From the NCBI RefSeq assembly GCF_054482595.1, contig NZ_CM137008.1: a DNA stretch of 64,000 nucleotides. One strand, given 5' to 3'. Positions 44,718 to 58,027 of the stretch are shown here, in pieces. The notes under the pieces are model-generated. The model was not told the origin of the DNA. It saw only the letters and a list, made by a program, of their open reading frames with translations, and made no database searches. Positions within the stretch are counted from its first letter, which is position 1, and every line of letters begins with the position of its first letter. The translations under genes and the position numbers were made by a program.

Positions 44718-44807
44718 TACTTATAACCAAAGATAACTCAAGTTATAAAAATTAGCAATAACCTTTGTTATTTTACTTTGGATAACCGTAGTTATAGATT
44801 TGTGGGT
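44718..44807. promoter_or_regulatory. OR operators with divergent pR/pRM promoters
   Basis: Repeated imperfect palindromes with ATAAC...GTTAT half-sites (ataactcaagttat, aataacctttgttatt, ataaccgtagttat). Confidence 0.6.
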
Positions 44808-45515
44808 ATGAAAACATTCGCAGAAAGACTAAATGCAGCCATGAGCTCAGCAGGGGTATCACAATCACAGCTTGCTGACATGGTTGGAATATCTCAGCCA
44901 GCCATACAGAAGATGTCGTCCGGTAAAACAAACGGATCTCGCAAGATGGTTGAATTAGCCAATGCTTTAAAAGTGCGTCCTGAATGGCTTAGTTCTGGTA
45001 TTGGTGAAATGAGGGATGGTGCACATGAAGAACCATCCAATGTCCGTGAGTCATCTTTAAAAGCTGTGGTATGGGAAGACATTAAAAGAAACGATGACGA
45101 GTTTGTTGCGTTGCCTCTTCTTAACGTTTCGCTTTCAGCTGGAAGCGGTAGCTGCGAGCTAGAGGAATCATCGGAGTTCTCTTTGGTTTTCAGAAAGCAC
45201 TATCTGAAAAAGATGGGAGTATCTGAAAGATCAGCCAAGCTAGTTAGGGTTGTAGGGCAAAGCATGGAACCAACGCTTCACGATGGCGATGTTGTTGGTG
45301 TTAACACGCAAGATACCACAATCAGAGATGGTAAAACCTACGCTATTTGCCAGTCTGATTTGTTACGAGTAAAAACATTAATCGCCACCCCTACATCGGT
45401 GATAATCAGATCAATAAATCGCGAAGAGTACCCGGATGAAGTAATGGATAGAGATGAATTTCATAAAACCGTAAGGATTATTGGCAGAGTATTCTGGTCG
45501 TCTCATAGTTGGTAA
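44808..45515 (+). CDS. cI: CI-type prophage repressor, HTH + S24 LexA-like autopeptidase domain (235 aa)
   Basis: ORF 44778..45515 trimmed to MKTFAERLNAAMSSAGVSQSQLADMVGISQPAIQKM; C-terminal GQSMEPTL with Ser and later Lys of S24 peptidases. Confidence 0.85.
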   Translation: MKTFAERLNAAMSSAGVSQSQLADMVGISQPAIQKMSSGKTNGSRKMVELANALKVRPEWLSSGIGEMRDGAHEEPSNVRESSLKAVVWEDIKRNDDEFVALPLLNVSLSAGSGSCELEESSEFSLVFRKHYLKKMGVSERSAKLVRVVGQSMEPTLHDGDVVGVNTQDTTIRDGKTYAICQSDLLRVKTLIATPTSVIIRSINREEYPDEVMDRDEFHKTVRIIGRVFWSSHSW

Positions 45516-45757
45516 CCGATAATCAGAAGAAGACTTACGGAAGTGCGGAGGGATAATGGAATTTCTGATAGTTTTTGTTGTTGTTTTGGTCATCATTCTT
45601 TTTGTTTTGCTAAGCATTAGCAAAAAGCTATCTCAAATGATTGAACATAGCTCTAATCGCGCAAAATAGACTGGCCCCCTGAATCTCCAGACAACCAATA
45701 TCACTTATTTAAGTGATAGTCTTAATACTAGTTTTTAGACTAGTCATTGGAGAGCAG

Positions 45758-46123
45758 ATGATTGATGTCTTAGGACCGGAGAAACGCAGACGGCGTACTA
45801 CACAGGAAAAGATCGCTATTGTTCAGCAGAGTTTTGAACCGGGAATGACAGTCTCCCTTGTTGCCCGGCAACACGGTGTGGCAGCCAGCCAGTTATTTCT
45901 CTGGCGCAAGCAATACCAGGAGGGAAGTCTTACTGCTGTGGCCGCAGGAGAACAGGTCGTTCCTGCCTCTGAACTTGCTGCCGCCATGAAGCAGATTAAA
46001 GAACTCCAGCGCCTGCTCGGCAAAAAAACGATGGAAAATGAACTCCTTAAAGAAGCCGTTGAATACGGGCGTGCAAAAAAGTGGATAGCGCACGCGCCCT
46101 TATTGCCCGGGGATGGGGAGTAA
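45758..46123 (+). CDS. insC: IS2 transposase OrfA (InsC, 121 aa)
   Basis: [58 protein letters not shown]3-family HTH OrfA. Confidence 0.9.
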
Positions 46124-46986
46124 GCTTAGTCAGCCGTTGTCTCCGGGTGTCGCGTGCGCAGTTGCACGTCATTCTCAGACGAACCGATGACTGGAAAGAT
46201 GGTCGCCGCAGCCGTCACTCAGATGATACGGATGTGCTTCTCCGTATACACCATGTTATCGGAGAGCTGCCCACATATGGTTATCGTCGGGTATGGGCGC
46301 TGCTTCGCAGACAGGCCGAACTTGATGGTATGCCTGCGATCAATGCCAAACGTATTTACCGGATCATGCGCCAGAATGCGCTGTTGCTTGAGCGAAAACC
46401 CGCTGTACCGCCATCGAAACGGGCACATACCGGCAGAGTGGCTGTGAAAGAAAGTAATCAGCGATGGTGCTCTGACGGGTTCGAGTTCCGCTGTGATAAC
46501 GGAGAAAAACTGCGAGTCACGTTCGCGCTGGACTGCTGTGACCGTGAGGCACTGCACTGGGCGGTCACTACGGGCGGCTTCAACAGTGAAACAGTACAGG
46601 ACGTCATGCTGGGAGCGGTGGAACGCCGTTTCGGCAACGAGCTTCCGGCGTCTCCAGTAGAGTGGCTGACGGATAATGGTTCATGCTACCGGGCTAATGA
46701 AACACGGCAGTTTGCCCGGATGTTGGGGCTTGAACCGAAGAACACGGCGGTGCGGAGTCCGGAGAGTAACGGCATAGCAGAGAGCTTCGTGAAAACGATA
46801 AAGCGTGACTACATCAGTGTCATGCCCAAACCAGACGGGTTAACGGCAGCAAAGAACCTTGCAGAGGCATTCGAGCATTATAACGAATGGCATCCGCATA
46901 GTGCACTGGGTTATCGCTCGCCACGGGAATATCTACGGCAGCAAGCCAGTAATGGGTTAAGTGATAACAGGTGTCTGGAAATATAG
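46081..46986 (+). CDS. insD: IS2 transposase OrfB (InsD, 301 aa; expressed as InsCD by frameshift)
   Basis: DDE integrase-type translation overlapping orfA 3' end in a different frame. Confidence 0.9.
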
Positions 46987-48826: not shown

Positions 48827-48921
48827 GCACTGTGTATTCATTCCAACGAGTGAATACACGGAGCAATGTCGCTCGTAACTAAACAGGAGCCGACTTGTTC
48901 TGATTGTTGGAAATCTTCTTT

Positions 48922-48949
48922 GCCCTCCAGTGTGAGGGCAATTTTTTTT
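48922..48949 (+). terminator. Rho-independent terminator within pL operon (antitermination target)
   Basis: gccctc cagtgt gagggc followed by aattttttttg. Confidence 0.65.
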
Positions 48950-48961
48950 GATGGAGGATAT

Positions 48962-49930
48962 ATGAGTGAAGTAACAGATTTAGTTGTTATTGAAAAAGCA
49001 AATGCAATGACTGTATTTCAGTCTGCCGACCAGATTGAAGAAATTCTCCAAAAGGTTGAACGTGAAGTTATGTCATTTGTGCCTGATATCACAACGGCAA
49101 AGGGCAGAAAGGAGATCGCTTCTCTGGCGTATAAAGTTGCGCAGACGAAAACATATCTCGATGGTCTTGGCAAAGACCTTGTTGCTGAACTGAAGGAAAT
49201 TCCAAAGCTAATTGATGCCAACCGCAAGACAGTGCGCGATCGCCTTGATGAACTGAAAGCCAAGGCGCGCCAGCCTCTTACTGATTATGAGGAAGAACAG
49301 GCGCGGATTAAAGCCGAAGAAGAAGCTAAGGCAGCAGCTGAAGCTCTCGCAAAGCAAATTGAGTCTGACCATGAAATAGCGATTTTGATGGATCGCGAAT
49401 TTGACCGCCAAAGAGAAGAGGCAAGACTCAAAGCGGAGCAGGAAAAGCGAGAGCATGAAGAACGATTAAAAAGAGAAGCTGAAGAGAAAGCCAGAGCTGA
49501 AGCCGAAGCAAAGGCAAAAGCCGAAATTGAAGCAGCAGCAAGACGAGAAGCAGAGGCTAAGGCCGCAGCGGAACGTGCAGAGCGTGAACGCATTGAAGCC
49601 GAGCAACGAGCACAGCGCGAAGCAAAAGAGGCAGCAGAACGAGCTGAAAGAGAAAAGCATGCGGCAATTGAAGCAGAACGCCGTAAAGCACAGGAGGAGG
49701 CAGAACGAATCCGGCGCGAGGCTGAAGCAAAAGAGCAAGCCAGAATAGCAGAAGAAAAAAGAATCAAGGACGAAGAAGAGCGTAGAGCAAAGGATAAAGC
49801 TCACCGGAAAGAAGTAAATAACAAAATACTTGCTGACCTTATCAAGGTTGGCGCATCAGAAGATGTTGCTAAAAATATCATAACAGCCATCGTAAAAGGC
49901 GAAGTATTCGCAACAAAAATAACCTACTAA
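48962..49930 (+). CDS. Hypothetical protein with long Ala/Glu/Lys/Arg coiled coil (TolA-like central region, 322 aa)
   Basis: GGAGG RBS then ATG 48962; about 150 residues of EAKAKAE/AERAERE-type repeats. Confidence 0.55.
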   Translation: MSEVTDLVVIEKANAMTVFQSADQIEEILQKVEREVMSFVPDITTAKGRKEIASLAYKVAQTKTYLDGLGKDLVAELKEIPKLIDANRKTVRDRLDELKAKARQPLTDYEEEQARIKAEEEAKAAAEALAKQIESDHEIAILMDREFDRQREEARLKAEQEKREHEERLKREAEEKARAEAEAKAKAEIEAAARREAEAKAAAERAERERIEAEQRAQREAKEAAERAEREKHAAIEAERRKAQEEAERIRREAEAKEQARIAEEKRIKDEEERRAKDKAHRKEVNNKILADLIKVGASEDVAKNIITAIVKGEVFATKITY

Positions 49931-50086: not shown

Positions 50087-50223
50087 CCATTAATCACCAG
50101 ATGCTTCGTGCGGCACAAAACAAAGCAGTAATAGCCAGATTTATTGGTGATTCCAAAATGTGGCTTGAAGCAAATAAAGCGATGAAATCAGCTATCAACC
50201 TTCCGTGGTATCGCAGGAAATGA
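50071..50223 (+). CDS. kil: Kil-like host-killing protein (50 aa)
   Basis: MRNEIAINHQMLRAAQNKAVIARFIGDSKMWLEANKAMKSAI resembles lambda Kil; overlaps cIII end. Confidence 0.5.
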   Translation: MRNEIAINHQMLRAAQNKAVIARFIGDSKMWLEANKAMKSAINLPWYRRK

Positions 50224-50477
50224 GTTTTACAGATAACTGGTCAGACGAAGAATTCATTCGTCAGATGAAAGATTTAATCGGTAACGAAGGAGATATTCAT
50301 GTCACTTGCAACCACAGTGAAGGAGAGCAAGTTACAGAGACGCATGTACACGCAGAAAGCTCTCTGGTATCGCCATAATGGCGACCGCGAAGGAATGCGG
50401 GTATGCCTTAATTTGTCCCGAGTCGAAGTATTAAATCAGCGTTATTTCCTTGGGCCATGTCCATTCTGAGGTGAATT

Positions 50478-51185
50478 ATGGATTTGAATAAATTCGATGA
50501 GCCATTCAGCCCTGAAGATATCGAATGGCGAATACAGCAAAGCGGTAAAACACGCGATGGCAAAGTGTGGGCTATGGTGCTGGCTTATGTCACGAACCGG
50601 GCAATCATGAAACGCCTGGACGATGTTTGCGGCAAAGCAGGATGGCGCAATGAATACCGCGATATTCCCAACAACGGCGGCGTTGAATGCGGCATATCAA
50701 TAAAGATTGATTCCGAATGGGTAACCAAATGGGATGCTGCTGAAAACACGCAGGTAGAAGCCGTCAAAGGTGGTCGTTCCGGTGCAATGAAGCGCGCTGC
50801 CGTTCAGTGGGGAATCGGTAGGTATCTGTATAACCTTGAGGAAGGTTTCGCACAAACATCTCTCGATAAAAAGCAGGGGTGGCACAGGGCAAAACTCAAG
50901 GATGGAACAGGATTTTACTGGCTCCCTCCATCGCTGCCGGGATGGGCAATCCCAGCATCAGATAACAAACCATCACCAGAAAATACCAACCAGAAATCTC
51001 CATCGGTTAACTGCGAACAAATCCTGAAAGACTTCAGCGATTATGCGTCAACAGAAACTGACAAGAAAAAACTCATCGAGCGTTATCAGCGTGACTGGCA
51101 ATTAATGGCTGGCAACGAGGAGGCGCAGGCTAAATGCGTTCAGGTAATGAACATCAGAGTTAACGAGCTAAAACAGGCGGCATAA
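50478..51185 (+). CDS. Rad52-type single-strand annealing protein (Sak-like, 235 aa)
   Basis: DIEWRIQQSGKTRDGKVWAMVLAYVTNRAIMKRLDDVCGKAGWRNEY...AVKGGRSGAMKRAAVQWGIGRYLY, Rad52/Rad22-like. Confidence 0.75.
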   Translation: MDLNKFDEPFSPEDIEWRIQQSGKTRDGKVWAMVLAYVTNRAIMKRLDDVCGKAGWRNEYRDIPNNGGVECGISIKIDSEWVTKWDAAENTQVEAVKGGRSGAMKRAAVQWGIGRYLYNLEEGFAQTSLDKKQGWHRAKLKDGTGFYWLPPSLPGWAIPASDNKPSPENTNQKSPSVNCEQILKDFSDYASTETDKKKLIERYQRDWQLMAGNEEAQAKCVQVMNIRVNELKQAA

Positions 51186-51659
51186 ATGGCAAGTAGAGGC
51201 GTAAATAAGGTGATCATTATTGGTCGCCTTGGGCATGATCCAGAAATCAGATATTCACCATCAGGAACGGCATTTGCAAACCTTACAGTTGCTACGTCAG
51301 AACAATGGCGTGATAAGAAAACTGGAGAGCAAAAGGAGCAGACGGAGTGGCACCGCGTGGTAATGAGCGGGAAACTGGCAGAAATTGCCAGCGAATATCT
51401 GCGAAAAGGCTCTGAGGTTTATCTTGAAGGAAAATTGCGGACAAGAAAATGGCAGGATCAAAGCGGACAGGATAGGTTCACTACCGAAGTCATCGTGGGC
51501 GTTGGTGGAACCATGCAAATGCTTGGTGGCAAGCAAGGAGGCAATGAACAGTCTTCACCTCAGCGAAATAACGGTCAGCAACAAAGACAGCAATCTCAGC
51601 AGCAGGGGAATCACAGCGAACCACCTATGAACTTCGACGATTCGGATATTCCGTTCTAG
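51186..51659 (+). CDS. ssb: Single-stranded DNA-binding protein (157 aa)
   Basis: OB-fold N-terminus [36 protein letters not shown], Gln/Gly-rich linker, acidic tail DDSDIPF. Confidence 0.9.
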
Positions 51660-51668
51660 GAGCTGAAT

Positions 51669-52148
51669 ATGAAAATCTGCTCAAGATGCCATCAACAGAA
51701 GGAAGAAAGGGACTTTCAAATCAGAAGAGCATCCAGAGATGGATTAACTGCCGCTTGCCGGGCTTGCCTGGCTGAATATGACAAAGAGCGCGCGGGATTG
51801 CCACATCGAGTATCAGCAAGGAGAAAATATCAATCATCGGAACGCGGAAGAGAACGGTGTAACGCAGCCAAAAAGCGGTTCATTCAGAGCAACCCATGGA
51901 AAAGAAAAGCCCACATCATCGTGGGTAATTTTTTGCGCGACGGTAAGCTAATCCGACCACCACAATGTGAGTGCTGCGGATCAGAATGTAAACCACAGTC
52001 GCACCACTGCGACTACAGCAAACCAACCGATGTGATGTGGCTCTGCAAGTCATGTCATGTCGAGTGGCACAAACATAACAAACCTATCTACCCAGACGAG
52101 GAACCAGTAACTCTCCCCTTCCCTCGTCACGCTATTCACGCAATTTAA
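51669..52148 (+). CDS. HNH-type endonuclease-like Cys-rich protein (159 aa)
   Basis: CSRCH...CRAC and CECCGSE...HHCDYSKP...CKSCHVEWH zinc-binding HNH-like arrangement. Confidence 0.55.
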   Translation: MKICSRCHQQKEERDFQIRRASRDGLTAACRACLAEYDKERAGLPHRVSARRKYQSSERGRERCNAAKKRFIQSNPWKRKAHIIVGNFLRDGKLIRPPQCECCGSECKPQSHHCDYSKPTDVMWLCKSCHVEWHKHNKPIYPDEEPVTLPFPRHAIHAI

Positions 52149-52156
52149 GGACTTAC

Positions 52157-52705
52157 ATGAATCACTTGATGGTTGACCTTGAAACAATGGGCAACGGGCC
52201 ATACGCGCCAGTTATTTCTATTGGGGCGGTATTCTTTGATCCGAATACCGGAGAAACAGGAGAAGAGTTCTCGGTAAATATCTCGCTTGAATCATCAATG
52301 CGATATCGAGCGCGTCCTGACGCTTCAACGATTTTATGGTGGCTGGAACAGAGTGAAGAAGCCAGAAAATCGCTAACCAGCAACACTCAGGAGCTTTCAA
52401 CGGCTCTTTCATGGTTATCTGAATTCATCATAAAGAACGCTAACCACAAATTCGTTCAGGTTTGGGGGAATGGAGCATCATTTGACTGCGTTATTCTCCG
52501 AAACAGTTATTCGCTGACAGGGCAGCCAGTTCCGTGGCAGTGGTGGAATGACCGCGACGTAAGAACAATCGTCGAACTTGGGAAGGTAATAGGATTCGAC
52601 CCTAAGCGAGATATGCCATTCAAAGGAACTCGCCACAACGCTCTTGATGATGCCATTCACCAAGCCAAATACGTTTCAGCGATCTGGAAAAAGTTAGCTA
52701 AATAA
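52157..52705 (+). CDS. DnaQ-like 3'-5' exonuclease (DEDDh family, 182 aa)
   Basis: Exo I motif MVDLETMG, Exo III motif HNALDDAIHQAKY. Confidence 0.7.
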   Translation: MNHLMVDLETMGNGPYAPVISIGAVFFDPNTGETGEEFSVNISLESSMRYRARPDASTILWWLEQSEEARKSLTSNTQELSTALSWLSEFIIKNANHKFVQVWGNGASFDCVILRNSYSLTGQPVPWQWWNDRDVRTIVELGKVIGFDPKRDMPFKGTRHNALDDAIHQAKYVSAIWKKLAK

Positions 52706-52721
52706 TCAACAGGAGAAAACC

Positions 52722-53018
52722 ATGCCAGCGCCTCTGTATGGTGCGGATGACCCGCGCCGCTGTTCCGGCAATTCCGTATCGGAGGTGCTGGATAAATTCA
52801 GAAAAAACTACGATCGGATAATGTCGCTACCTCAGGAAACGAAAGAGGAAAAGGAATTTCGCCATTGTATATGGCTTGCAGAGAAAGAAGAACGCGAGCG
52901 AATTTACCAGACATCAATCCGACCATTCCGCAAAGCCACATATACCCACTTCCCTGAATATATCGACCCGCGCCTGCGTAATTACCGCTCACGCTATGGC
53001 GCTATCAGTAATGACTGA
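52722..53018 (+). CDS. Hypothetical protein (98 aa)
   Basis: ORF with no recognisable motif. Confidence 0.4.
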
Positions 53019-55342: not shown

Positions 55343-55561
55343 ATGTACTTGACACTTCAGGAGTGGAACGCACGCCAGCGACGCCCAAGAAGCCTTGAAA
55401 CAGTTCGTCGATGGGTACGCGAGTGCAGGATATTCCCTCCTCCGGTTAAGGATGGAAGAGAGTATCTGTTCCACGAATCAGCGGTAAAGGTTGACTTAAA
55501 TCGACCAGTAACAGGTAGCCTTTTGAAGAGGATCAGAAATGGGAAGAAGGCGAAGTCATGA
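55343..55561 (+). CDS. xis: Excisionase Xis, lambda-type (72 aa)
   Basis: MYLTLQEWNARQRRPRSLETVRRWVRECRIFPPPVKDGREYLFHESAVKVDLNRP matches lambda Xis as recalled. Confidence 0.93.
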   Translation: MYLTLQEWNARQRRPRSLETVRRWVRECRIFPPPVKDGREYLFHESAVKVDLNRPVTGSLLKRIRNGKKAKS

Positions 55562-56609
55562 GCGCCGGGATTTACCCCCTAACCTTTATATAAGAAACAA
55601 TGGATATTACTGCTACAGGGACCCAAGGACGGGTAAAGAGTTTGGATTAGGCAGAGACAGGCGAATCGCAATCACTGAAGCCATACAGGCCAACATTGAG
55701 TTATTTTCAGGACACAAACACAAGCCTCTGACAGCGAGAATCAACAGTGATAATTCCGTTACGTTACATTCATGGCTTGATCGCTACGAAAAAATCCTGG
55801 CCAGCAGAGGAATCAAGCAGAAGACACTCATAAATTACATGAGCAAAATTAAAGCAATACGGGGGGGGCTGCCTGATGCTCCACTTGAAGACATCACCAC
55901 AAAAGAAATTGCGGCAATGCTCAATGGATACATAGACGAGGGCAAGGCGGCGTCAGCCAAGTTAATCAGATCAACACTGAGCGATGCATTCCGAGAGGCA
56001 ATAGCTGAAGGCCATATAACAACAAACCCTGTCGCTGCCACTCGCGCAGCAAAATCAGAGGTAAGGAGATCAAGACTTACGGCTGACGAATACCTGAAAA
56101 TTTATCAAGCAGCAGAATCATCACCATGTTGGCTCAGACTTGCAATGGAACTGGCTGTTGTTACCGGGCAACGAGTTGGTGATTTATGCGAAATGAAGTG
56201 GTCTGATATCGTAGATGGATATCTTTATGTCGAGCAAAGCAAAACAGGCGTAAAAATTGCCATCCCAACAACATTGCATGTTGATGCTCTCGGGATATCA
56301 ATGAAGGAAACACTCGATAAATGCAAAGAGATTCTTGGCGGAGAAACCATAATTGCATCTACTCGTCGTGAACCGCTTTCATCCGGCACAGTATCAAGGT
56401 ATTTTATGCGCGCACGAAAAGCATCAGGTCTTTCCTTCGAAGGGGATCCGCCTACCTTTCACGAGTTGCGCAGTTTGTCTGCAAGACTCTATGAGAAGCA
56501 GATAAGCGATAAGTTTGCTCAACATCTTCTCGGGCATAAGTCGGACACCATGGCATCACAGTATCGTGATGACAGAGGCAGGGAGTGGGACAAAATTGAA
56601 ATCAAATAA
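55539..56609 (+). CDS. int: Integrase Int, lambda-type tyrosine recombinase (356 aa)
   Basis: MGRRRSHERRDLPPNLYIRNNGYYCYRDPRTGKEFGLGRDRRIAITEAIQ... matches lambda Int as recalled; overlaps xis end. Confidence 0.95.
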   Translation: MGRRRSHERRDLPPNLYIRNNGYYCYRDPRTGKEFGLGRDRRIAITEAIQANIELFSGHKHKPLTARINSDNSVTLHSWLDRYEKILASRGIKQKTLINYMSKIKAIRGGLPDAPLEDITTKEIAAMLNGYIDEGKAASAKLIRSTLSDAFREAIAEGHITTNPVAATRAAKSEVRRSRLTADEYLKIYQAAESSPCWLRLAMELAVVTGQRVGDLCEMKWSDIVDGYLYVEQSKTGVKIAIPTTLHVDALGISMKETLDKCKEILGGETIIASTRREPLSSGTVSRYFMRARKASGLSFEGDPPTFHELRSLSARLYEKQISDKFAQHLLGHKSDTMASQYRDDRGREWDKIEIK

Positions 56610-56682
56610 TGATTTTATTTTGACTGATAGTGACCTGTTCGTTGCAACAAATTGATAAGCAATGCTTTTTTATAATGCCAAC

Positions 56683-56697
56683 TTAGTATAAAAAAGC
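56683..56697. other. attL core (B-O-P' junction, int side)
   Basis: ttagtataaaaaagc = reverse complement of GCTTTTTTATACTAA; 56610..56682 matches lambda P' arm as recalled; followed by host aggc... Confidence 0.9.
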
Positions 56698-56743
56698 AGG
56701 CTTCAACGGATTCATTTTTCTATTTCATAGCCCGGAGCAACCT

Positions 56744-58027
56744 GTGAACACATTTTCAGTTTCCCGTCTGGCGCTGGCATTGGCTTTTGGCGTGACGCTG
56801 ACCGCCTGTAGCTCAACACCACCCGATCAACGTCCTTCTGATCAAACTGCGCCTGGTACCTCTTCTCGCCCGATTCTGTCGGCAAAAGAAGCGCAGAATT
56901 TCGATGCTCAACACTATTTTGCATCCCTGACACCAGGTGCTGCAGCGTGGAATCCGTCCCCGATAACCCTGCCTGCGCAACCTGACTTTGTTGTCGGCCC
57001 GGCGGGTACTCAAGGTGTAACGCATACCACGATTCAGGCGGCGGTAGATGCGGCAATTATCAAGCGCACCAACAAGCGCCAGTATATTGCCGTGATGCCT
57101 GGTGAGTATCAGGGAACGGTGTATGTCCCTGCTGCTCCAGGTGGAATTACTCTGTACGGTACAGGTGAAAAACCGATTGATGTGAAGATTGGGCTTTCCC
57201 TTGATGGGGGCATGAGCCCTGCCGACTGGCGTCACGACGTCAACCCGCGCGGCAAATATATGCCAGGTAAACCAGCGTGGTATATGTACGATAGCTGCCA
57301 GAGCAAACGCAGCGACAGTATCGGTGTTCTGTGTTCTGCGGTCTTCTGGTCACAAAACAATGGCCTGCAACTGCAAAACCTGACCATCGAAAACACGCTG
57401 GGTGATAGCGTAGATGCGGGTAACCATCCGGCGGTGGCACTGCGTACTGACGGTGACCAGGTACAGATTAACAACGTTAACATTCTCGGTCGTCAGAACA
57501 CCTTCTTTGTCACCAACAGCGGTGTGCAGAACCGTCTGGAAACGAATCGTCAGCCGCGTACGCTGGTGACCAACAGCTACATTGAAGGGGATGTGGATAT
57601 CGTTTCTGGTCGCGGCGCAGTGGTGTTCGATAACACCGAATTCCGCGTGGTGAACTCACGTACTCAGCAAGAAGCGTATGTGTTTGCACCGGCTACGCTG
57701 TCCAACATTTACTACGGTTTCCTCGCCGTAAACAGCCGTTTCAATGCTTCCGGTGATGGCGTGGCACAACTGGGCCGCTCGCTGGATGTTGATGCCAATA
57801 CCAACGGTCAGGTGGTGATCCGTGATAGCGCCATCAACGAAGGTTTTAATACGGCTAAACCGTGGGGCGATGCGGTGATCTCTAATCGTCCGTTTGCGGG
57901 TAACACCGGCAGCGTTGACGATAGCGACGAAATACAGCGCAATCTGAATGACACTAACTACAACCGCATGTGGGAATACAATAACCGCGGCGTGGGTAGC
58001 AAAGTGGTTGCAGAGGCGAAGAAGTAA
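56744..58027 (+). CDS. ybhC: Pectinesterase-like outer membrane lipoprotein YbhC (427 aa)
   Basis: Signal peptide with lipobox LTAC; 427 aa; host gene on the gal side of attB-lambda. Confidence 0.88.
   Translation: MNTFSVSRLALALAFGVTLTACSSTPPDQRPSDQTAPGTSSRPILSAKEAQNFDAQHYFASLTPGAAAWNPSPITLPAQPDFVVGPAGTQGVTHTTIQAAVDAAIIKRTNKRQYIAVMPGEYQGTVYVPAAPGGITLYGTGEKPIDVKIGLSLDGGMSPADWRHDVNPRGKYMPGKPAWYMYDSCQSKRSDSIGVLCSAVFWSQNNGLQLQNLTIENTLGDSVDAGNHPAVALRTDGDQVQINNVNILGRQNTFFVTNSGVQNRLETNRQPRTLVTNSYIEGDVDIVSGRGAVVFDNTEFRVVNSRTQQEAYVFAPATLSNIYYGFLAVNSRFNASGDGVAQLGRSLDVDANTNGQVVIRDSAINEGFNTAKPWGDAVISNRPFAGNTGSVDDSDEIQRNLNDTNYNRMWEYNNRGVGSKVVAEAKK

Follow-up and report, generated by a model that had tools for sequence, protein, structure and literature searches.

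The block between positions 50,478 and 53,018 of the window, the whole 64,000-nucleotide stretch of DNA that was analysed, is an ordinary P22-like recombination (Rec) module of an already catalogued type. It carries five genes and is probably part of the early-left (pL) operon in a lambdoid prophage akin to P22 and Sf6; the genes for an HNH-like protein (HNH) and for a 3'–5' exonuclease (Exo) are optional. The finding of the first four genes by itself matters little, as the seemingly missing exonuclease is explained by the fifth, Abc2. The genes of the module and two small ORFs that precede it are as follows.

50205-50378, + strand: small ORF of 57 aa (PHROG 2123, E 1.4e-41)
50299-50469, + strand: small ORF of 56 aa (PHROG 1723, E 9.4e-36)
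50478-51185, + strand: Rad52-fold annealase (SAP), 235 aa (Pfam Rad52_Rad22)
51186-51659, + strand: bacterial-type SSB, 157 aa (Pfam SSB; C-terminus ...NFDDSDIPF)
51669-52148, + strand: Cys-rich nuclease ORF of the His-Me finger (HNH-like) type, 159 aa (PHROG 2340)
52157-52705, + strand: DEDDh 3'–5' exonuclease (Exo), 182 aa (Pfam Rv2179c-like)
52722-53018, + strand: Abc2 anti-RecBCD protein (Pfam Anti-RecBCD_p2)

All five genes occur in the same order in Escherichia phage CurroJimenez_Bas106 (PQ850599), with 98.4% nucleotide identity over 2541 nt, and are annotated there as Erf-like SSAP, SSB, endonuclease, exonuclease and Abc2. There is essentially no difference between the two modules; the window copy belongs to a prophage that has an integrase of the lambda type. 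DnaQ-like and HNH nucleases have been recorded in Rec modules of lambdoid phages by a 2025 survey (PMC12315714), in which the module types of Sf6, epsilon34 and mEp235 appear. Unlike the window, genes 28-25 of Shigella phage Sf6 (SAP-SSB-HNH-Abc2, HNH being gp26) are without Exo, and genes 36-33 of Salmonella phage epsilon34 and the module of coliphage mEp235 (SAP-SSB-Exo-Abc2) are without HNH; ECP1 has SAP-SSB-Abc2 and neither nuclease. The module is found in ES18 too. Only three panel phages of the survey have two Rec-module genes of the same function, and none of the three has HNH plus DnaQ.

Spacers between the annealase, SSB, HNH and Exo ORFs are 0-9 nt, all four ORFs being on the + strand, and Abc2 starts 17 nt 3' of the Exo ORF. 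The order of the pL operon would be N-...-cIII-kil-small ORFs-SAP-SSB-(HNH)-(Exo)-Abc2-ea genes-xis-int, with optional genes in brackets. An IS element lies upstream of N. The two small ORFs overlap and are located between kil and the annealase gene, where P22 has arf; Sf6 annotates both, as gp30 and gp29. The PHROGs to which they are assigned both carry the label 'recombinase', which stands for a putative function. They were rejected as homologues of Arf, since P22 Arf belongs to a different PHROG (2445), and tblastn for Arf and Abc1 over the window gives merely a 7-residue SDEEFI match.

The preliminary description had recognized the four ORFs from the annealase to Exo, and they are indeed present at those coordinates on the + strand, with domain matches far beyond chance. 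Its Rad52-type call for the first of them was borne out by a domain search: Pfam Rad52_Rad22 (PF04098) matches residues 4-136 (E 5e-26; score 91.9 bits, cutoff 20.3), which align with positions 7-153 of the 153 in the profile, and the protein falls in PHROG 1097 (E 8e-130). The C-terminal 79 residues (157-235) are 63% identical to residues 134-205 of P22 Erf (E 2e-30). No Pfam match to the ERF N-terminal domain (PF04404) was found in the annealase, and tblastn and BLASTP align Erf 134-205 alone. Judged by these homologies, the product of 50478-51185 would be a single-strand annealing protein with a Rad52-fold N-terminus and an Erf-type C-terminus; this Erf domain swap is already known (PMC2629481). 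The second protein matches Pfam SSB (PF00436; E 2.9e-38) and TIGR00621 (180.6 bits, cutoff 53.95).

The claim that the usual P22 Erf and Abc functions are replaced does not hold. Just downstream of Exo lies the gene for Abc2, which matches Pfam Anti-RecBCD_p2 (PF11043; E 4.3e-62) and is 93% identical to P22 Abc2 over 98 aa, so that the module as first delimited (50478-52705) was one gene short. Because Abc2 is present and the Erf C-terminal domain is kept, the P22 strategy is retained. Abc2 of P22 turns RecBCD into a 5'–3' exonuclease, as the work of Murphy (2000) is summarised in PMC5928155, and the mechanism is also covered in PMC12315714. On the strength of the identity between the two proteins, the window Abc2 would likewise bind RecC and convert RecBCD. 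The preliminary description was correct that lambda Exo, Bet and Gam are missing (tblastn across the 64-kb window, best E 0.7), and also that there is no Exo/RecE-type 5'–3' exonuclease: the best tblastn match to lambda Exo has E 5.6, and the early-left ORFs searched are without such a Pfam domain. This is expected, because Abc2 would convert host RecBCD into an enzyme of that kind.

The core of the module may thus be pictured by homology and from published work on P22 and HK620. Binding of Abc2 to host RecBCD would yield a Chi-independent 5'–3' resection machine, and the phage SSB would coat the 3' single strand left by the modified enzyme. The annealase, a Rad52 fold with an Erf-type C-terminal partner domain, would then pair this strand with a complementary one, probably in cooperation with SSB. 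Such annealing would serve to circularise the genome, which is terminally redundant, and to support recombination-dependent replication, and a phage-encoded 5'–3' exonuclease would not be needed in the core module. The arf-erf-abc1-abc2 region of P22 resembles the window in Abc2, in the Erf C-terminal domain, in its position after cIII/kil and in the hijacking of RecBCD. The window differs in having a Rad52-type rather than an ERF-type N-terminus, an added SSB and two added nuclease cassettes, and in the absence of Abc1 and Arf. With lambda Red (Exo-Bet-Gam) and Rac RecET it shares operon position and single-strand annealing at DNA ends, but it has no homologue of Exo/YqaJ, RecE, Bet/RecT or Gam, and RecBCD would be modified by Abc2 rather than blocked.

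Both nuclease genes are optional cassettes, since all four combinations of presence and absence occur and Abc2 is never missing. Among 85 informative loci with annealases at least 98% identical, 38 have SAP-SSB-Abc2, 24 SAP-SSB-Exo-Abc2, 18 SAP-SSB-HNH-Abc2 and five SAP-SSB-HNH-Exo-Abc2; the presence of HNH is statistically independent of that of Exo (Fisher p 0.20). Abc2 is found in every locus whose contig reaches that far, being missing solely at contig ends. About one in five complete E. coli genomes contains parts of the module; 97 genomes have full HNH and 99 at least 80% of the five-gene query. Association of HNH with Exo in every E. coli case was considered and rejected, SAP-SSB(allele A)-Exo-Abc2 without HNH also giving more than 80% coverage. 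Very rough estimates for E. coli, from a 1-in-10 listing, are about 40 records with both nucleases, 60 with HNH alone, 110 with Exo alone and 180 lacking the two.

These distributions bear on the view that the first four genes are by themselves a complete and unusual system of recombination, in which HNH makes the initiating breaks and Exo processes the ends, together replacing Exo/RecE and Abc. The genes are co-oriented and tightly packed, with the 0-9 nt spacers given above, and the window is without a phage 5'–3' exonuclease; tight packing is also the ground on which the DnaQ of epsilon34 and the HNH of ES18 are held to be probably legitimate Rec-module members (PMC12315714). However, Abc2 lies directly downstream and is never missing in relatives, and a 3'–5' exonuclease has the wrong polarity for producing annealase-ready 3' tails. 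Of the 85 near-identical modules, 38 have neither nuclease and 42 have just one, so that neither enzyme can be an indispensable partner, and a self-contained system seems very improbable. The earlier suggestion that HNH and Exo act in recombination is weakened as far as integral partners are meant, each being present or absent independently in near-identical modules. The SAP-SSB-Abc2 core with and without HNH and Exo constitutes a natural deletion series for the contribution of HNH and DexA-like nucleases to phage recombination, a matter left open by the 2025 survey (PMC12315714).

The assignment of Exo as DnaQ-like stands. It matches RNase_T (E 1e-3), and Pfam Rv2179c-like (PF16473) is matched at all 177 of 177 profile positions (E 2.9e-73). 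The DEDDh residues D7, E9, D110, H160 and D165 are present and align with D7, the Glu of the DFET motif, D119, H186 and D191 of T4 DexA; among 27 relatives D7, D110, H160 and D165 are invariant and E9 is nearly so. The best solved relative is 8KEL/8KEN (E 9.5e-14), which we infer from PMC12153337 to be T4 DexA and its S87A/D90A mutant. W130 of Exo aligns with W152 of DexA, one of two residues implicated there in 5hmC recognition. The other, D169, falls opposite F147, which precedes D148; the alignment of this loop is uncertain. Exo is without an equivalent of D90, the Asp that forms the DexA tetramer.

From its sequence, then, Exo appears to be an independent accessory 3'–5' DNA exonuclease, a short relative of T4 DexA (182 aa against 227 aa). 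Exo shares with DexA the DEDDh fold family (Rv2179c-like), the catalytic residues and the Trp; like EcD, an E. coli homologue of DexA, it is shorter than DexA and without the tetramer-forming Asp, and it differs from both in that its gene lies in the Rec module of a temperate phage. DexA resects 3' ends in intron homing (PMC12153337). By analogy Exo may trim 3' ends or flaps in break repair and annealing, a role to which somewhat less than an even chance is given. A pro-recombination role is uncertain: 3' tails are required for annealing and a 3'–5' exonuclease would be expected to destroy them, and according to PMC12315714 recombination is usually inhibited by enzymes of this kind.

Another suggestion is that one or both of the nucleases act in phage–phage or phage–host conflict and not in recombination. 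Exo could degrade the 5hmC DNA of competing T-even phages, in the manner of EcD ('HREX'), which lacks the tetramerisation Asp, degrades T4 DNA and protects against T4 (PMC12153337). Exo keeps the catalytic residues and W130, has D148 and, like EcD, is without a D90 equivalent. The next-closest Exo subfamily (60-63% identity) is found outside Rec modules, next to xis/int, a typical position for accessory genes. HNH, for its part, could exclude HNH-less competitors or mask breaks from break-sensing defences such as GAPS4; according to a preprint (10.1101/2025.09.07.674715), homing endonucleases of the HNH type from phages do not need catalysis to attenuate GAPS4, and they mediate interference competition. 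Against this, the pL operon is repressed in a lysogen and the two genes are well inside it, and no convincing internal promoter is seen: a consensus scan for a promoter that might permit lysogen expression found six promoter-like sites, fewer than the 14.3 expected in shuffled sequence. The comparison with EcD is moreover limited to its first six residues, MIDTET, as read from a primer. None of the 120 homologues listed starts with MIDTET, and a scan of viral contigs for the EcD locus with the 20-mer of the reverse primer matched one unrelated contig. Conflict is considered an unlikely function for either nuclease or for both. The results speak neither for nor against the role in counter-defence that the preliminary description raised.

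The HNH call in the preliminary description was upheld in part: the catalytic His residues are kept and a ββα-Me unit is modelled, but there is no Pfam HNH match and the Asn is not conserved. The 159-aa protein belongs to PHROG 2340, 'endonuclease' (E 2e-46). Pfam gave no match to it even at E≤10, and with a limit of E≤0.01 neither the window protein nor any of 129 relatives matched a curated HNH family of Pfam or NCBIfam. In Pfam scans of alignments of 32 and 129 relatives, usable matches were limited to the zinc-finger families DUF6510 and Stc1; the sole HNH-named match in both alignment scans was that of one relative to HNH_2 (E 0.13). Searches of the PDB by phmmer and two profile searches found nothing significant, the one HNH-related trace being T5 SciA (E 8.3), and Foldseek with the HNH model found no PDB match at E≤1e-3.

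The protein consists of an N-terminal C4 zinc ribbon, a helical hairpin and a C-terminal ββα-Me unit. An AF2 model (pLDDT 91) places H112 and H113 in a strand at 110-113, followed by a strand at 122-125 and a helix at 127-136 that contains H130 and H134; the unit is flanked by C100-x2-C103 and C126-x2-C129. The modelled topology fits a His-Me finger, in which the putative general-base His would end strand 1 and the metal-ligand His would lie in the helix. Conservation of these His and Cys residues reaches or approaches 100% among 122 relatives; at position 121, that of the classical Asn, 52 of the relatives have D, 36 E, 8 S and 6 V. The family is very large: in a search that covered one representative per 50%-identity cluster, 30,073 proteins passed E≤1e-10 and 67,601 passed E≤1e-3. 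No Pfam model or tested function was found for it. The RefSeq annotation pipeline omits the HNH ORF in E. coli genomes, and surveys based on RefSeq annotations miss it because it is left unannotated.

The junctions of the two cassettes were defined by comparison of the window with Sf6, ECP1, mEp235 and E. coli NT1W22, and delimit the following segments.

51630..51656, + strand: tip-coding tract of ssb, diverged from HNH-less alleles
51657..52103, + strand: HNH cassette, sequence missing from HNH-less relatives
52104..52148, + strand: borrowed tail, PVTLPFPRHAIHAI plus stop codon, which is the 3' end of ssb in HNH-less relatives
52149..52705, + strand: Exo cassette, an 8-nt leader and the 182-aa ORF (52157-52705)

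The Exo junction is clean, TAA/GGACTTACATG...TAA/TCAACAGGAG versus TAA/TCAGGAG (slashes mark the breakpoints). HNH, by comparison of the same genomes, is inserted in a coding sequence. In the window, SSB ends in a free acidic tip, FDDSDIPF followed by the stop codon. In HNH-less relatives DIPF is followed by a 15-aa tail, the C-terminus in ECP1, mEp235, epsilon34 and NT1W22 being ...DDDIPF-APVTLPFPRHAIHAI-stop and the 3' junction of ssb GACGACGATATACCCTTTGCACCAGTAACTCTCC; in HNH+ loci DIPF is terminal and the tail has moved onto HNH. This rule held in all loci examined. The stretch 52104..52148 is 100% identical to sequence within the annotated ssb of many HNH-less E. coli prophages. The HNH insertion point is the same in all loci, directly after the DIPF codon of ssb, and the cassette brings with it a stop codon for ssb, a ribosome-binding site (RBS) and the larger part of the HNH ORF.

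The ssb sequence beside the insertion is itself distinctive. Consensus sequences of ssb from 22 HNH+ and 18 HNH- loci differ once in the first 444 alignment columns and 13 times in the last 30. Several of these differences, within 27-30 nt of the cassette, are synonymous, and one is a codon insertion; shorter diverged tracts are seen in a few recombinants. The junction motif tracks the presence of HNH (22/23 loci versus 1/61; Fisher p 6e-18). As read from the alignments, the tip tract behaves as a co-conversion or target-immunity tract might, though it could be an ordinary mosaic breakpoint instead.

The chances seem about even that HNH is a free-standing element of the homing-endonuclease type, specialised on the 3' end of phage ssb. 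Such an element would insert after the DIPF codon, give ssb a new stop and take the displaced ssb tail as its own C-terminus, and the re-coded tip sequence would protect its carrier from cleavage. HNH is polymorphic at a single site (23 HNH+ and 62 HNH- loci with annealases at least 98% identical). The same site is filled, beside a different ssb allele, by an HNH variant of 48% identity, and in ES18 it holds an unrelated HNH_3 homing-type gene. Decay is also evident: phiKp_30 keeps just the first 8 and last ~20 codons, premature stops interrupt 2 of 23 IMG/VR copies, and chimeric SSB-HNH and HNH-Exo products occur in databases.

The association extends well beyond this phage group. In 60 of 75 loci the gene immediately before the HNH relative encodes an acidic ..[IVL]PF tip at its end, or in 68 of 75 if a tip with a short tail is included, while 0 of 1190 other ORFs in those loci have such an end (p 6e-89). 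A wider proposal, which we hold tentatively and at slightly worse than even odds, is that the family is a homing-endonuclease lineage specialised on tip-coding DNA, which unrelated phage SSB genes must conserve. The literature searched holds no description of a link between this HNH family and SSB acidic-tip genes; the order ssb-then-HNH has been noted anecdotally for other HNH families. In T7 gp2.5/gp2.8, ES18 gp48/gp47, SPP1 36/36.1 and staphylococcal ssb-HNHc_6, HNH starts 0-40 nt after an acidic-tip ssb and is of other families (HNH_3/I-HmuI-like, HNHc_6) than in the window. T7 gp2.8 was rejected as a homologue of the window HNH (hhalign probability 0.1), gene order alone being common.

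The same adjacency could equally mean a functional partnership, HNH being not selfish but an SSB-associated accessory nuclease (e.g. a nickase, or an enzyme of branch processing) that is co-expressed with SSB and dispensable in many phages. HNH stays next to SSB-tip genes across relatives of 30-52% identity, the upstream tip proteins range from 78 to 390 aa in several unrelated families, and the adjacency recurs with partners of the Rad52, Erf, Sak, Sak4 and RecA-like types. Recurrence of the gene order with other HNH families in T7, SPP1 and staphylococcal phages points the same way, and there is a parallel in the terminase-adjacent HNH proteins that proved functional (Kala et al. 2014, as cited in PMC12315714). 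A dedicated partner is harder to reconcile with a cassette that splits an ORF, is flanked by a re-coded, target-like tract, and is polymorphic among modules at least 99% identical, and with the decay of HNH in some lineages and its replacement by an unrelated homing-type gene in ES18. In an AlphaFold run of HNH joined by a 30-residue linker to its cognate tip, for which an alignment pairing 35 HNH proteins with their tips was used, the SSB tip was undocked and unstructured (pLDDT about 36-39); this crude run, made without a control, is weak negative evidence. An accessory nuclease thus appears rather unlikely, though less so than a role in conflict.

If the HNH family does home to the tip-coding end of ssb, this would explain why HNH genes of several families follow ssb, and would caution against counting ssb-adjacent HNH genes as recombination enzymes. 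In the phage group of the window, an HNH element would on the same homing reading have split ssb from its 15-residue tail. That tail otherwise caps the acidic tip of SSB and should mask it, and SSBs with and without the cap offer a natural test of the dependence of phage SSB on a free tip.

All four open reading frames that the preliminary description assigned to a recombination module are present on the + strand, spaced by 0–9 nt. They are part of a lambdoid prophage, in its early-left operon, whose genes are listed here.

Early-left operon of the prophage, in order of the genes (coordinates in the window).
47709, N-like antiterminator, first in the listed order
49955, cIII
50071, kil
Between kil and the annealase gene, two small ORFs
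50478–51185, + strand, 235-aa annealase (Pfam Rad52_Rad22, E 5e-26, residues 4–136)
51186–51659, + strand, 157-aa bacterial-type SSB (E 2.9e-38) with a C-terminal acidic tip, ...FDDSDIPF
51669–52148, + strand, 159-aa Cys-rich protein, here HNH (PHROG 2340, "endonuclease")
52157–52705, + strand, 182-aa exonuclease, here Exo (Rv2179c-like 3'-5' exonuclease family, whole profile, E 2.9e-73)
52722–53018, Abc2, directly after the exonuclease
After Abc2, Ead/Ea22-like and Lar-like genes
Between these genes and the integrase, an excisionase-like ORF
55539–56609, lambda-type integrase, 356 aa, end of the prophage

The module belongs to a well-known kind. The 2.5-kb block from annealase to Abc2 is matched over its full length, at 98.4% identity, in phage CurroJimenez_Bas106, and 1106 of 5426 complete E. 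coli genomes match some part of it. Subsets of the block are found in Sf6 (annealase-SSB-HNH-Abc2) and in mEp235, mEpX2, epsilon34 and g341c (annealase-SSB-Exo-Abc2), and ECP1 has annealase-SSB-Abc2 only. A survey of 325 lambdoid phages published in 2025 describes Rec modules made up of SSB, nuclease, annealase and anti-RecBCD genes, counts DnaQ-like 3'-5' nucleases and HNH nucleases among their members, and warns that HNH genes can be mobile (PMC12315714). Pairs of genes with the same function were seen there in the modules of just three phages, none of which combined HNH with DnaQ; the arrangement in the window is thus an unlisted combination of known parts and no new kind.

Judged by homology, the strategy of P22 is retained rather than replaced. 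The Abc2 gene, which begins 17 nt past the exonuclease stop codon and so outside the span described earlier, encodes a protein with a Pfam match to Anti-RecBCD_p2 (E 4.3e-62) and 93% identity to P22 Abc2. Over its C-terminal 79 residues (50946–51182), the annealase shares 63% identity with the Erf C-terminal domain of P22. The annealase is thus a chimera of a Rad52-type N-terminal domain and an Erf-type C-terminal domain, an "Erf domain swap" known from epsilon34 and its relatives (PMC2629481). Through the domain in common with Erf it may contact a partner, either Abc2-RecBCD or SSB. In tblastn searches of all 64 kb of the window, lambda Exo, Bet and Gam and P22 Abc1 and Arf found no match. 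Lack of a phage-encoded 5'-3' exonuclease is to be expected, because Abc2, according to the part of PMC5928155 that summarises Murphy 2000, reportedly gives host RecBCD a 5'-3' exonuclease activity by which ends are made ready for the phage annealase; the action of Abc2 on RecBCD is also covered in PMC12315714. The preliminary description was therefore accurate in the genes it observed and in finding no Exo-type partner, but its proposal that the Erf/Abc functions of P22 had been replaced does not hold, since Abc2 and the Erf C-terminal domain are both in place.

Both nuclease genes are optional cassettes of the module. Among 80 IMG/VR loci with an annealase at least 99% identical to that of the window, taken together with reference phages and the window itself, 38 loci have the order SAP-SSB-Abc2 (SAP being the annealase), 24 have SAP-SSB-Exo-Abc2, 18 have SAP-SSB-HNH-Abc2, and five carry both nucleases as SAP-SSB-HNH-Exo-Abc2. 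Whether a locus has HNH is statistically independent of whether it has Exo (Fisher p 0.20), and Abc2 is missing only at loci where the contig ends. The junctions of the exonuclease cassette are clean and fall at stop codons. At one IMG/VR locus (L010, 5107–5573), about 465 nt of extra sequence separate annealase and ssb, two genes otherwise contiguous, and mark what may be a further site of cassette insertion.

The HNH cassette lies within ssb. In HNH-less relatives (ECP1, mEp235, epsilon34 and E. coli NT1W22) the SSB runs past the acidic tip and ends ...DFDDDIPF-APVTLPFPRHAIHAI, the 3' junction of the gene reading …ATGGATTTTGACGACGATATACCCTTTGCACCAGTAACTCTCCCC…. In the window and in Sf6, by contrast, the SSB terminates at ...DSDIPF, and it is the HNH ORF that terminates ...PIYPDEE-PVTLPFPRHAIHAI; the final 46 nt of this ORF are 100% identical to the 3' end of ssb in many HNH-less E. 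coli prophages. At all loci examined the tail is on SSB where HNH is absent and on HNH where it is present, and 51657–52103 is therefore an insertion exactly after the DIPF codon. The inserted segment brings a stop codon, a ribosome-binding site and the HNH ORF, which reads on into the displaced ssb tail and its stop codon. An old annotation note that Sf6 gp26 has 14 contiguous residues in common with an SSB is probably accounted for by this borrowed tail.

The consensus sequences of ssb from 22 loci with HNH and 18 without it differ at one position in the first 444 alignment columns but at 13 of the last 30, among them synonymous changes and the insertion of a codon. The junction motif tracks the presence of HNH (p 6e-18), with a few recombinants. 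An ordinary mosaic breakpoint could give such a junction pattern. At the identical site, a different ssb allele (L057) carries an HNH variant of 48% identity, and ES18 has an unrelated HNH_3 homing-type gene in the place of the window's HNH. In Klebsiella phage phiKp_30 (L089, 2680–2883), a decayed remnant of the window-type gene, unannotated in the record, lies between the ssb and exonuclease genes; it consists of the first 8 codons (MKICSRCH), unrelated sequence, and the last ~20 codons with the tail. Taken together, the insertion, recoded junction, variants and decay are typical of a free-standing homing endonuclease gene.

The HNH family is very large: at E ≤ 1e-3 it counts 67,601 representative proteins, and at E ≤ 1e-10 still 30,073. 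In contigs of nine relatives, the gene before HNH encodes an acidic ..[IV]PF C-terminus in all eight that have visible upstream sequence, and the partners are Erf, Sak, Sak4-like or RecA-like proteins. A family-level test of neighbours covered 75 IMG/VR loci with upstream sequence. A tip-ending gene lies immediately upstream of HNH at 60 of them, or at 68 if tips with a short tail are included, and such a C-terminus is encoded by none of the 1190 other ORFs in these loci (p 6e-89). Upstream proteins come from several families, with lengths between 78 and 390 aa. With other HNH families, the same ssb-then-HNH order is seen in T7 gp2.5/gp2.8, in SPP1 36/36.1 (PMC6316719) and in staphylococcal ssb-HNHc_6 (PMC8093625). 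We regard the chances as about even that HNH is a homing lineage aimed at tip-coding DNA, which would be the single sequence that all these unrelated SSB genes must conserve. Adjacency to tip-ending genes also fits a nuclease that works with SSB, a proposal we entertain only tentatively; the tip did not dock to HNH in a crude AlphaFold test. The homing interpretation is preferred because of the population-level evidence of cassette, junction and decay. The close association of this uncharacterised family of HNH genes with the 3' end of ssb in phages is the one lead that merits pursuit.

Searches of Pfam, NCBIfam and the PDB gave no sequence match to the 159-aa protein. Its relatives conserve two CxxC pairs, H112-H113, D115, Y116, H130 and H134. 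The AlphaFold model (pLDDT 91) comprises an N-terminal zinc ribbon, a helical hairpin and a C-terminal beta-beta-alpha unit in which the conserved residues are located. The ORF (51669–52148) is unannotated in RefSeq (PGAP) E. coli genomes, whose annotation does include its neighbours, ssb and the exonuclease gene; the entry at 99%-identical matches (H46–H50) is "none". Surveys built on such annotation would overlook it. A weak terminator-like hairpin within the ORF (51909–51926, + strand), with a 6-bp stem and a T-rich run, is probably due to chance, since the 16 such sites in the region are not clearly above the shuffled expectation of 10.4 (sd 3.3).

Partner proteins of SSB recognise its free C-terminal Phe, which should be masked by the 15-residue extension APVTLPFPRHAIHAI that follows DDDIPF in HNH-less SSBs (L003, 4209–4715; L004, 4209–4724; L006, 2040–2546; L088, 2209–2715). 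An unrelated 324-aa protein (L095) likewise continues past MDFDDDVPF, with the similar tail APVGLQYARHAISALYA, and thus the tail may be functional.

The exonuclease has the DEDDh set D7, E9, D110, H160 and D165. Among solved structures, its best relative is a 227-aa "exodeoxyribonuclease" (8KEL/8KEN, E 9.5e-14). We identify this pair, from sequence differences equal to the S87A/D90A of PMC12153337, as wild-type T4 DexA and its mutant. DexA functions in host-DNA scavenging and in trimming of 3' ends during intron homing, and EcD, a shorter E. coli homologue, reportedly degrades 5hmC DNA and protects against T4 (PMC12153337). Like EcD as described there, the window's exonuclease has no tetramerisation Asp and has retained the Trp (W130). 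Candidate roles are end trimming, nucleotide scavenging and inter-phage conflict; its polarity makes it unlikely to produce a recombinogenic 3' tail. Relatives of at least 79% identity are located in Rec modules. In contrast, no annealase, SSB or Abc2 lies within 3 kb of a subfamily of 60–63% identity (33 loci, L229–L260 among them; 184–190 aa). In L231 (3001–3567), the one locus examined, the gene is followed directly by an excisionase-like ORF and an integrase and has an HD-domain-like ORF beside it, as is typical of accessory genes or morons. E. coli DexA homologues are presented as bacterial defence in PMC12153337, where prophages are unmentioned. Those examined in E. coli and its relatives belong to the early-left operons of prophages, and the "bacterial" EcD-type exonuclease may thus be phage-borne.

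Elsewhere in the window, the opposite-strand ORFs upstream have sizes like those of a P22-like virion gene set. A lipoprotein gene after the integrase (region 55539–58027) is presumably a ybhC-like host gene, a neighbour that points to integration at or close to the lambda attachment site. Between the cI-like repressor gene (44778–45515) and the N/pL region is an insertion sequence of the IS3 family (45713–46986), whose two transposase ORFs overlap and which we take to resemble IS2 InsC/InsD; from this position it may alter operator or promoter function, or signal a defective prophage. At 48866–49930 (probable start 48962) is a 322–354-aa protein of PHROG 1376, with no Pfam match and a long coiled-coil segment rich in Glu, Ala, Lys and Arg; it is conserved in Sf6 (gp33), in Bas106 and in prophages of E. 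coli, each time directly before cIII.
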